Shown piece by piece: positions 6,001 to 9,000 of a stretch of DNA of 64,000 bases; within the stretch, counting starts at the first letter, position 1; each line of letters opens with the position of its first letter. Position numbers: made by a program. Where the stretch lies: assembly GCA_964397315.1 (NCBI GenBank), contig CAYNHV010000003.1, positions 19,336 through 83,335 on the forward strand, given 5' to 3'. The DNA comes from an uncultured Methanosarcinales archaeon (lineage in GTDB: Archaea > Nanobdellota > Nanobdellia > Woesearchaeales > UBA12501).

Positions 6001-9000
6001 CATTCCTGTTCTCATTGTGGGGAACAAGATAGACCTGAAGAAGGCTGATCTCAAGAGGATAGAGGCTGCATTCCCGCAGTATGACGTGATAGGAATAAGC
6101 GCCAGATACGGGAAGAACATAGACAAATTATACGAGGCATTGTTTGTTTTGGTGGACTGAAAATGAACCTTACACTGCAGTTTGTGCCATACAGTGAAAT
6201 TGAGGACTTAAGCTCAGTAGGCAGGATAAAGAAGCTTCTTAAGATGGCCAAGGAGAACAAGATAGTGCTTCTTGAGGGAAGGCTGAAGAAGGATGAGGAG
6301 ACAGAGCTTATAAAGACGACAATGGAGGAGATAAACGACGAGTTCAAGGGAATAGAGCTGGGAGTGATATACCCTGAGAGAGGGGAAGGCGCTCTGCTGA
6401 AGAGGCTGAAGGGGGGAGTTGCAAAGGTTCTGCTCGGCAACAGGATGGGGGTCACTATAATCGGGCCCGCGTCAATAGTCAAGGAGATAAAGAGGGATCC
6501 CACAAAGATAGAGCTTTTCACTACATCCCCAAAAAAGCCGAAGAAGAGGAAGAAAAAGAGGAAGTGAGGGAAACATCGCTTTTGCAGCTGTTTCAATGTT
6601 CTGAAAATGCCCCACCAATGCGTGAGATGCGGAAAACTGTATGATGACGGCTCCAAGGAGATACTTACAGGATGCAGCTGCGGGGCCAGGCTCTTTTTCT
6701 ACATAAAGAAAGACAAGCTTGAGAAAGCCAAGGAGATGACCGAGAATCTCACCTCGCAGGAGAAAAAGCAGATGGAGGAGGACGTGCTTGATATTGTCGG
6801 CATGGAGAAGAATGAGGAGACTCCTGTTGTTCTTGACCTTGAGTCAGTAAGGGTTCTCAAGCCCGGCAAGTTTGAGATAGACCTGGTGCATCTTTTCAAC
6901 AAGAAGGACCCCATAATATACAAGCTTGAGGAGGGCAAGTATGTGATTGACATTGCAGAGACATTCAAGAGAGGCCTCAAAAAAGAGTGATTGGTTTCTG
7001 TATCCGCCTTTTCCTTATGTTATTGATGTTCACCTTCCGCTGACTATCTCTATCACATCCCTGTGGCTCAGCTTGTGCTCTTTTCCTACTGTCTTTTTTG
7101 CCCTTACATCCACCGCTCTGATGAAGTTCTTTCCGAAGTCTGAATGGACAGCGTATGCAAAGTCAAGCGCAGTGGATCCGCCAGCAAGAAGGAAACAGTC
7201 AGGAAGCACATTGCCGTCCTGATCAGCGAGCTTGTTAACCCCTCCAGGGAACACTGCAATATACCCAAGCAGGCCGAACACTGCTGTGTCAAGCACCTGC
7301 TGCACTCCTGTGCTGCCGTGCTTCTGAAGTATGTTCTTGTCTATGAATTCCAGGGCTTTTTTCTGCTTGTCGCTCAGCTTTGAGCTGTCTTTTATCTCCA
7401 TATCCTTCTCTCCAGGTATATAATCAACAAGCCCGTGCTTTGCAGCCTCCTTAAGGGCGAGTTCTGACTCTGCAGAGCAGGGTATTATTTTCAGGTGGGG
7501 GAATCCCTCTATCGCTCTCTTCAGGTTTGCTTCTGCTCCAGGAACATCAATCTTGTTGGCCGCTATCACCATTGGCTTGGTTCTTTTCCTGAGCTCAGTT
7601 GCCATTGCCATGAGGTTTTCATCAGACCATGCTGTTATATTGCTTCTGTCAAGCTGCATTTTGCTGATGATATCCTCAACCATGTCCTCATCAACCTTCA
7701 GGCCTGAAAGCTGTTTTGCGAGGGCCTTGACAATGTTTTGCTTCTCCTGCTGGACTGTTCTTGAGAATTTTTCCCAGTTCCTTTTTATTATTCCAAGATA
7801 CCACATGTCAATCTCTTTCTCAAGAAACTCTATGTCTTTTGCAGGATCATGGCTTCCTGTTTCAACAGGTTCTCCATGCGCGTTCAGGCTTCCTGATATG
7901 TCAACGACGTGTATGAGAACATCAGCCTGCCTTAAGTCATCCAGGAACTGGTTTCCCCTTCCTTTTCCCCTGTGGGCGTCAGGAACCAGGCCTGCAACAT
8001 CCACGAGCTCCACAGCCACGAACCTTTTTCCATTGATGCAGTAGCCTGTTCTGGGGCTGCACTTAACCCCAAAGTCCCTGTCAGCACAGTCAACTTTCAC
8101 ATACCCCACTCCTGAGTTCGGGTCAAGAGTAGTGAAGGGATAATTTGCTATCTCCACCTCAGCAAGTGTTGCTGCCTTGAAGAAGGTGCTCTTTCCTGCA
8201 GAGGGCTTTCCCACAAGTCCTATTATCATGCAGGGCAATTATCTAATCAGATATAAAAAATTTGCTACCGCTATTAATGTTGTGCTGATGCATCTCCCAA
8301 CAACTTGAGAGCACGGACTCCACAAGTCAGGAGCGCACTTAAGCATATTACAGGGTGGGCTTATCTGTAGCAGGAGTGGAGAGTTGTGTGGTTACAGAAG
8401 CAGAAAGCCTGAGGGGTGGTTCTGCAGTAAGGGTGGGAAGCACCAGGAATCATAAGCACAAGCATATACCTCAGAGGGCGGGTGGAACCTGGAGCTGTAA
8501 AAACCAAAATATCAGCTCCACAAGGGCGGGAGATGCCATGGGTTATTAAGATAATAAATGAGAATAGGGAGTATCACCCTGGAGATCAGCAAACCTAGAC
8601 TGCAGGCTCGTGCTGTTTAGTGATTATAAAACCCCGCAAAGCACCCGAAGGCGCTTTGTGGGGAAAAAGAGGTGATTATAATTGCGTTTGGGCTTAAAAT
8701 TACCCCCAAACCCTTATATCTACTGCATAGTAGTATAGGTTATATTTAAAGTTTTCGGTATTTAGAGTACTCAAGAATAGTCATAACTCAGAAGCGGGCA
8801 GGAGGGCGTGGCTGGAGGCCTTCTAAAGGTCCAAAACAACCTGCAGGACAATACCTCCATTTTCCTCCCTTATCTCCATCTCATTGTAGGTGGCAGCCTT
8901 TACCTCGCCGTGAGTCTCATACCTGCCTGACACCCTGTCTCCTGTGACAACAGCATCAAGCTCCCTGCCCTTAATCTCCAGGCTTTTTACCTCATGCATC

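Follow-up and report, generated by a model that had tools for sequence, protein, structure and literature searches.

Repeated C-rich motifs that oppose Shine-Dalgarno (SD) sequences are found in anti-SD small RNAs (sRNAs) such as RsaE/RoxS of Firmicutes and sRNA41 of Methanosarcina mazei. The sRNAs of the CsrB/Rsm type present repeated GGA motifs in short hairpins that mimic the SD sites bound by CsrA (PMC7652899). We describe here an intergenic repeat, family A, in a 64,000-nt stretch of DNA (hereafter the window) deposited as an uncultured Methanosarcinales archaeon (GTDB lineage Nanobdellota; Nanobdellia; Woesearchaeales; UBA12501; assembly GCA_964397315.1, contig CAYNHV010000003.1, positions 19,336 to 83,335, forward strand). 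Family A is a lineage-restricted, non-coding repeat family built as a core plus an expandable array, with three complete copies and a truncated one in 64 kb, i.e., a new sequence family of a known general kind, the multicopy intergenic non-coding RNA (ncRNA) or repeat. Its apparent likeness to CsrB is one of functional analogy and not of membership, and full-text literature searches on small RNAs of DPANN archaea, Woesearchaeota included, found no described regulatory RNA family.

The similarity among the copies is real and far beyond chance. Copies 1 and 2 are 75% identical over 164 nt (8299-8461 and 24271-24433, two gaps, E 7.6e-25, blastn), which bears out the conserved blocks that a preliminary description of this DNA had reported at 8329-8550 and 24299-24480 and moves the beginning of the homology ca. 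30 nt further upstream, to 8296 and 24266; a second collinear block (8498-8549 and 24431-24478, 77%, blastn) joins their last modules. The same description had counted only two full elements. A third, found on the minus strand, matches copy 1 with 76% identity over 118 nt (E 7e-19) and copy 2 with 72% over 132 nt (E 4e-15), the region of blastn homology (50032-50163) taking in its first module. Repeat finding over the whole window returned the corresponding inverted arms (24303-24434 with 50032-50163, 72%; 8339-8458 with 50036-50155, 75%). The fragment noted near 11490-11520 stands as a single module (nhmmer E 0.0025; blastn 82% over 28 nt, E 0.04), while the leader similarity upstream of it is weak. 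Searched against the window, the core profile matched the three copies and no other place, and a candidate fourth copy at 27046-27088, non-collinear and inside a zinc-ribbon open reading frame (ORF), was set aside as a chance match.

Each copy consists of a ~30-nt leader, with the pattern (A)GAGCRC..AC.CC, a ~100-nt core and then two, three or five tandem modules of ~45 nt, to a total of 210-340 nt; copy 1 has three modules, copy 2 has two and copy 3 five, and the fragment has a single one. In copy 3 the leader has an 8-9-nt deletion, and 5 nt separate the last module from the stop of the convergent ORF 48511-49851. A block of 111 nt, anchored on TGGGCTTAT and running through the first module, is gap-free across the three copies at 25-30% divergence, which suggests a length constraint in a compact genome. 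The modules follow the pattern AAGGGNGGGAAGNACC..TCATAA (consensus AAGGGNGGGAAGNACCnnGAGTYATAA), and in their alignment (n = 11) positions G9 and G11-G13 never vary and A14, C19 and C20 hardly do, with unconserved AT-rich linkers between them. A nearly invariant G-box, free linkers and a variable number of modules together form the pattern of a binding-site array. Given that modules 1 and 2 of copy 3 are near-duplicates, the array appears to change by tandem duplication; the arrays as such are too diverged for Tandem Repeats Finder, which left them undetected. Same-strand clusters of GGGHGGG are confined in the window to the three copies, plus two overlapping matches 4 nt apart at 22636/22640, and in ~430 kb from 32 related genomes a single isolated pair was seen and dismissed on inspection.

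The family is restricted to this lineage as far as the searched collections extend. Exact degenerate patterns made from the invariant core positions had no match in the GTDB species genomes or the JGI metagenomes, whereas a looser pattern for the right half met eight metagenome loci and one for the left half six IMG/VR loci, all of them similar only at the pattern itself. Phage and plasmid collections held no match (blastn). The best relatives of the YchF protein beside copy 1 belong to Woesearchaeota/Nanoarchaeota metagenome-assembled genomes (MAGs) and are at most 77% identical, and the ychF neighbourhoods of 32 such MAGs contained neither core nor module (nhmmer), synteny around ychF being lost in the closest of them. 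The Rfam search proposed in the preliminary description produced no family: no gathering-level match to Rfam 15 was obtained in the window, and the E-value mode (8000-12000 and the whole window) gave only chance matches of the miRNA/snoRNA type elsewhere.

Family A carries no coding signal. The suggestion that it encodes a lineage-specific small protein of 36-73 aa is largely refuted, and we hold it to be very improbable. The shared RVG.T..HKHK stretch is indeed present (frame 2), its frame is open in all three copies with GTG starts in copies 1 and 3, and the strand has a gene-like purine content. However, variable sites fall on codon positions 1/2/3 as 18/11/13, 11/13/18 and 13/18/11 in the three frames (13/18/11 in the RVG.T..HKH frame), without third-position excess, and dN/dS (NG86) is about 1 in the start-bearing frame (1.47, 0.52 and 1.82), not the Ka/Ks below 1 that had been named as speaking against an ncRNA or a miniature inverted-repeat transposable element (MITE); over all frames it spans 0.35-1.82 and none stands out. 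In a sequence so poor in T open frames come cheaply: two forward frames run uninterrupted through the core, and upstream of the core the second of them offers no ATG, GTG or TTG in copies 1 and 2. The putative start lacks a ribosome-binding site, and the C-termini are unrelated, that of copy 3 ending after 36 codons and that of copy 2 (ORF 24339-24545) running, as first described, into repeat B, the adjoining hairpin array that begins at 24476. Protein searches uncovered no true homologue: a profile of the three peptides had 0 matches among 5.8 billion clustered proteins (word-indexed search), and the sole match among 1.84 billion representatives (exhaustive HMMER) is a 3848-aa repeat protein in which eight identical stretches of 21-25 bits add up to a spurious E-value. 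Translated comparison with the window (tblastx) gave no coding paralog.

The G-boxes have the strength of SD sequences. Against the canonical archaeal anti-SD tail, which is assumed here and may not be the host's, they are predicted to pair with a mean energy of -8.2 kcal/mol, compared with -5.9 for real upstream regions and -4.0 for random windows, and six of them reach -9.8 kcal/mol or lower. In four modules, including the last of each full copy, an ATG follows 3-5 nt after the G-box, and these two properties together make the units look like translation-initiation regions. The ribosome-binding region of gene 54040-54285 (TTTAGGGTGGGAGA-ATG, 54286-54300) has the 10-nt word AGGGTGGGAG in common with module 1 of copy 2.

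We tentatively favour, at somewhat less than an even chance, the possibility that the copies of family A are independently transcribed RNAs on the G-rich strand that act as multivalent SD-like decoys or platforms. They would then constitute a small family of paralogous ncRNA genes specific to this Woesearchaeota-like lineage, each transcribed from the G-rich, purine-rich strand, antisense to both flanking genes, from a start at an AT-rich box that adjoins, or is common with, the promoter of the divergent leaderless gene. The RNA would have a conserved 5' leader and a core that close into a three-helix fold, followed by an expandable 3' array of two to five units, each presenting the G-box GGGNGGGAAG with its GGA in or beside a weak 4-bp hairpin. 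With a complementarity to the 16S anti-SD tail that would equal that of real ribosome-binding sites of the genome, such an array could serve as a multivalent decoy or platform titrating one partner, either the anti-SD tail of the 30S subunit or a protein that recognises SD-like GGA sites, after the logic of bacterial CsrB/RsmZ; copy 2 may be part of one transcript with repeat B.

The likeness to CsrB/CsrC/RsmX-Y-Z lies in an RNA that is non-coding and often paralogous, in a variable count of GGA units, here predicted to lie at short (<=4 bp) hairpin loops, and in apparent SD mimicry. The differences are equally clear: the sequences are unrelated and Rfam gives no match, the unit consensus is AAGGGNGGGAAG and not CAGGA(U/A/C)G or ACA..GGA..GU, the units are 45 nt apart and only two to five in number, an extra 130 nt of leader and core is attached, and the host is a DPANN archaeon. 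It is a long shot that family A represents the first archaeal equivalent of the multivalent decoy RNAs of the CsrB type, titrating 30S subunits or an SD-binding regulator; if true, it would provide a global translation switch for a genome-reduced DPANN symbiont. Three retained non-coding paralogs of 210-340 nt in 64 kb are nevertheless unexpected, given the small, gene-dense genomes of DPANN archaea, and each of them adjoins a translation-related gene and carries repeats resembling ribosome-binding sites. If transcribed, they would offer a tractable first example of post-transcriptional control in this group.

The evidence from RNA structure is suggestive only. On the G-rich strand RNAalifold predicts three helices, one between the leader and the AGTTGTG block (AGAGCRC..CYCC with GGRG..UUGUGYKGU; 12 pairs, every one of which forms in copy 2), a GAGCGCACUU/GGGUGGGCUU hairpin and an AACC/GGUU hairpin, in which 89% of cells pair against 39-49% with slid partners, 13 cells being G-U, for a fold derived from the same three sequences. 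A putative module hairpin, GGNG-GGAAG-CN'CC, pairs in 79% of cells against 33-51% when slid, with an N:N' pair that is CG in three modules, UA in three and mismatched in four; the GGA sits in the predicted pentaloop of its 4-bp stem in 9 of the 11 modules, the covariation of this hairpin not being significant. The consensus fold energy is -17.6 kcal/mol for the G-rich strand and -12.2 for its reverse. The G-rich strand is 58-62.5% purine, as compared with a mean of 58.5% for gene sense strands (4 of 68 below 50%), and a box of the CTATTAATG / CCTATTAAGT type stands ~20-22 nt before an ACA at the conserved start, both in copy 1 and in the fragment. The UUCG, UGAA and GCAA loops of repeat B, which lie on the G-rich strand of copy 2, were also counted for that strand, as were the strongly folded domain and the hairpin with five T downstream of the truncated relative. 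Taken together, these features make the G-rich strand somewhat likelier as the transcribed one.

A number of observations weigh against the decoy model. Its transcription, strand, fold and decoy function are each deduced from sequence. Covariation is not significant either for the three-helix fold (one pair changes on both sides, and 325 of 500 shuffles reach the score) or for the module hairpin (75 of 500), and the minimum free energies have z-scores against shuffles of -1.25, -1.29 and +0.27, with +1.6 for the core of copy 3. Thus, of the structured ncRNA advanced in the preliminary description, the ncRNA is the best remaining interpretation, but the adjective is not borne out. The longest invariant run in the core is 9, which by our estimate is about chance at 60% invariance. 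TATA-like boxes exist on the opposite strand too (the TTATTAA of the terminal module reads as one), an Elp3-type promoter box at 24482-24493 points into copy 2, and where a promoter of copy 3 would be expected none is convincing. Pairing with the anti-SD tail, a sequence that is assumed and may differ in this genome, is poor for G-boxes with N=C. Finally, CsrA is known as a bacterial protein, and tblastn with the E. coli and B. subtilis sequences gave only chance matches (E at least 0.5) in the window.

Another possibility, which we consider unlikely, is that the functional RNA is the C-rich strand, co-directional with the neighbours, as an sRNA or as an extended alternative 5' leader of ychF, of the NSUN-type gene and of the S19e region, whose repeated CUUCCCNCCCUU motifs would act as anti-SD sequences, base-pairing with G-rich ribosome-binding sites in mRNAs and so blocking translation. 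These motifs perfectly complement real ribosome-binding sites (e.g., the 10-nt match to AGGGTGGGAG upstream of gene 54040-54285), and TATA-like boxes are at the right distance, e.g., CATTTATTATC / TTAATAAC right of copy 1, GCTTTAATAAGT beside copy 3 and, right of copy 2, TTTTCAATAAGG, a homologue of the box that the leaderless Elp3-like gene 27542-29263 appears to use as TATA. T-runs after the element (T6 at 8259-8264, T4 at 24240-24243, T6 near 50268-50274) could be added, but they are the TATA boxes of neighbouring genes, and as these neighbours look leaderless a long leader is unneeded. On this strand the module hairpin loses little (about 72% against 79% of cells paired); however, the G-U pairs of all proposed helices become A-C mismatches, the consensus fold is poorer by the energies given above, and the strand is pyrimidine-rich, unlike 64 of the 68 gene sense strands. 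Were it the RNA, it would share with RsaE/RoxS and sRNA41 repeated CCC-rich motifs, partly in loops, that are complementary to the ribosome-binding sites of the genome, but it would be two to three times longer than they are, without sequence similarity to them, and the structural evidence favours the other strand.

Family A might also act as DNA, as a direct-repeat protein-binding array with a 43-50 bp period, either a regulator site for translation-related genes or an iteron-, centromere- or origin-like element, and this we regard as rather improbable. The conserved 12-16-bp box, the free AT-rich linkers, the variable repeat number, the weakness of the RNA-structure evidence and the neighbours (ychF, an rRNA/tRNA methyltransferase gene and S19e) speak for such an array. 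Against it, the spacing within that range is irregular, the arrays are distal to the neighbours' promoters with a 130-nt core between, three such sites in 42 kb speak against origins or centromeres, the scanned flanking genes encode no Orc1/Cdc6, partition or mobile-element domain, the G-string is on the wrong side of the dyad-like part when compared with the archaeal origin recognition box (ORB), and a consistent orientation with purine skew fits a transcript better. It is also conceivable, though again not likely, that the elements are functionless remnants, i.e., old duplicated or once-mobile intergenic DNA in decay with motifs left over from tandem duplication, which would account for the lack of detectable relatives, for conserved core runs no longer than chance and for the seemingly recent tandem duplication of modules 1 and 2 in copy 3; the intergenic regions are shared with other repeats and hairpins, and in the Logan assembly of the same organism there is a break within a module. 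Neutral DNA is nonetheless expected to be lost from reduced, gene-dense genomes, owing to the deletion bias of prokaryotes. Moreover, the copies have no terminal inverted repeats, target duplications or near-identical sisters, at 25-30% divergence 111 nt have acquired no indel, 10-11 of the 11 modules retain G12-G13 and A14 while the linkers are free, and all three copies are oriented identically relative to their neighbours.

Several known classes of elements were compared with family A and rejected. With MITEs and with the repetitive extragenic palindromes (REP) and bacterial interspersed mosaic elements (BIME), it has in common that it is multicopy, non-coding, intergenic, a few hundred bases long or less and lineage-restricted, but it is not palindromic, no two copies are near-identical and the scanned neighbours encode no transposase or RAYT-like domain. 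The MITE put forward in the preliminary description accordingly fell away: the first and last 45 nt of the three copies match exactly in inverted orientation over at most 5, 5 and 6 nt (random mean 5.0), the flanks share words of 3-4 nt at most, without a target-site duplication, and the copies are only 72-76% identical within the 64-kb window. Iterons and archaeal ORBs resemble it as direct repeats of a G-containing box with AT-rich linkers between, whereas family A has three arrays within 42 kb, no adjacent initiator gene and a non-repetitive core attached; an archaeal origin was rejected on the neighbouring genes (ychF, archease, RsmB/NSUN, FmrO-like and S19e, not Orc1/Cdc6). A diversity-generating retroelement, in which mismatches are confined to the adenines of one copy and the variable repeat is inside an ORF, does not agree with mismatches that involve all four bases in every pair, nor with intergenic copies and no reverse transcriptase (RT) domain in the scanned neighbours. 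Canonical G-quadruplexes require four G3 tracts with 1-12-nt loops, which no copy has; two GGGNGGG separated by a loop of <=45 nt are found in the window only at the three copies. As for box C/D or H/ACA guide RNAs, no Rfam match of the snoRNA type covers the elements, and the boxes (RUGAUGA and CUGA for C/D) are unconserved in the module alignment.

Table 1 Features of family A and adjoining elements in the window. The nhmmer E values of the three copies (~1e-49 to 1e-55) are low by construction, as the core profile was built from the same three cores
Feature	Position	Strand	Remarks
Family A copy 1	8296-8552	+	Leader 8296-8329, core 8330-8424; nhmmer E 4e-52
Copy 1 modules (n = 3)	8425-8459, 8470-8504, 8518-8552	+	Module E 3e-5, 3e-3, 3.5e-4
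Family A copy 2	24266-24481	+	Leader, core, modules; abuts repeat B at 24476; nhmmer E 5e-55
Copy 2 modules (n = 2)	24397-24431, 24447-24481	+	
Family A copy 3	49856-50196	-	Core to about 50070; nhmmer E 8e-49
Copy 3 modules (n = 5)	50035-50069, 49990-50024, 49948-49974, 49901-49935, 49856-49889	-	
Truncated relative	11445-11529	+	Weakly similar leader and one module (11495-11529), without core
AT-rich TATA-like boxes, ychF to copy 1	8249-8279		Putative, by comparison with leaderless promoters of the genome
Single AT-rich box TCTTTATTAAAATTT	24230-24245		Putative; between the NSUN-type gene (ATG 24207, minus) and copy 2
Repeat B hairpin array	24476-24800	+	Directly after copy 2; non-homologous to family A; z about -10

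The surroundings of family A are those of an ordinary archaeal chromosome. The adjoining genes encode a YGR210/YchF-type GTPase, an archease, an RsmB/F (NSUN-type) methyltransferase, an FmrO-like methyltransferase and S19e, those further away L31e, Cbf5, Elp3, a P-type ATPase, pyruvate phosphate dikinase (PPDK) and an FeFe hydrogenase, and among the 29 window proteins scanned there were no mobile-element, transposase, RAYT-like, RT, partition or Orc1/Cdc6 domains. All three full copies occupy gaps of 580-720 nt between co-directional genes, with the G-rich strand facing against both neighbours.

Genes that head a transcription unit have a TTTATAAA-like box whose end is ~21-24 nt upstream of the ATG, and these genes, ychF and the NSUN-type gene included, thus appear leaderless; such boxes were seen upstream of ~20 genes (e.g., 1481, 4123, 8232, 9587, 11306, 13645, 24207, 25654, 25733, 38729 and 52643). 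Operon-internal genes have G-rich ribosome-binding sites instead, e.g., GAGGTGA, GGAGGGAAAAA-ATG and AGGGTGGGAGA-ATG. Between ychF and copy 1, GATATAAAAAATTT probably reads as the ychF TATA box on the minus strand, and CTATTAATG stands on the plus strand ~22 nt before the first conserved base of copy 1, while TCTTTATTAAAATTT is at TATA distance for the NSUN-type gene and also precedes the conserved start of copy 2 by 25-30 nt. Both ychF and the NSUN-type gene have a single AT-rich box in common with the family A copy that diverges from them. The preliminary description had placed the elements in 5' intergenic regions, and they do adjoin the 5' ends of both genes; however, with both genes seemingly leaderless (TATA-like box ending ~20-24 nt before the ATG) and the G-rich strand antisense to them, the elements would be outside their 5' untranslated regions, if those promoters are used.

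Directly before copy 3, at about 50190-50210, there is a C-rich stretch, CCCGCCCTCCATCCCCCTC, complementary to the G-boxes. The direct repeat TTTTGGTTAATCCAGA occurs twice upstream of the copy (50381-50396 and 50247-50262, minus strand), and an ORF of 80 aa without Pfam match (50266-50508) overlaps that region.

The same organism is represented in the Logan assemblies of SRR7048227 by two contigs that match the window with 100% identity. The end of one (L033) and the start of the other (L034) are 6 nt apart (8469-8474), inside module 2 of copy 1, and the other end of L033 is 30 nt past the fragment module. Such breaks may be caused by repeat-induced breaks in the assembly graph, by population variation in module number or by poor coverage of G-rich sequence.

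Repeat B (24470-24817) comprises ~8 near-perfect hairpins, whose loops on the plus strand are UUCG, UGAA and GCAA, and has a z of about -10 on either strand; a long-range helix, AAAATCCCGAC / GTCTGGGATTTT, encloses two of the hairpins. It has a paralog at 29285-29553, 90-95% identical in two blocks and with a 115-nt insertion of further hairpins, in which a G-U-creating substitution points to the same strand as the G-rich strand of copy 2. Repeat B may be a structured RNA, a terminator or insulator array, or a set of palindromic DNA insertions. The left end of the paralog, CTTTATTGAAAA (29288-29298), reads as the minus-strand TATA box of the leaderless Elp3-like gene 27542-29263, and the homologous box at 24482-24493, beside copy 2, points into that copy on its C-rich strand.

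The region of the truncated relative, 11440-11700, folds with a z of -5.5, and a strongly folded domain and a hairpin with five T follow the relative on the same strand. The stretch looks like a separate RNA gene of ~235 nt that opens with a family A-like leader and one module. Within 11541-11696 (plus strand), a closing helix, TCAGAAATATA / TATATTTCTGA, encloses two hairpins and is followed by GAATGAAGC-TTTC-GCTTCAT and then by CCACCGGTC-TCT-GACCGGTGG-TTTTT. Over the whole window, 19 distinct perfect hairpins with stems of at least 8 bp were counted, as compared with 4.6 in mononucleotide shuffles, and they cluster at 11551-11801, 24486-24767 and 29294-29498.

Elsewhere in the window, the gene at 4123-5277 encodes a 384-aa protein with MCM, AAA_5 and MCM_lid matches, short for an MCM helicase, which is followed by a small GTPase gene (MMR_HSR1) and genes of the OapB/OapC family (Logan gene table). 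In this Woesearchaeota-like genome there is also a gene for an FeFe-hydrogenase large subunit with ferredoxin domains (17333-19006), which adjoins those of PPDK and a lactate/malate dehydrogenase.

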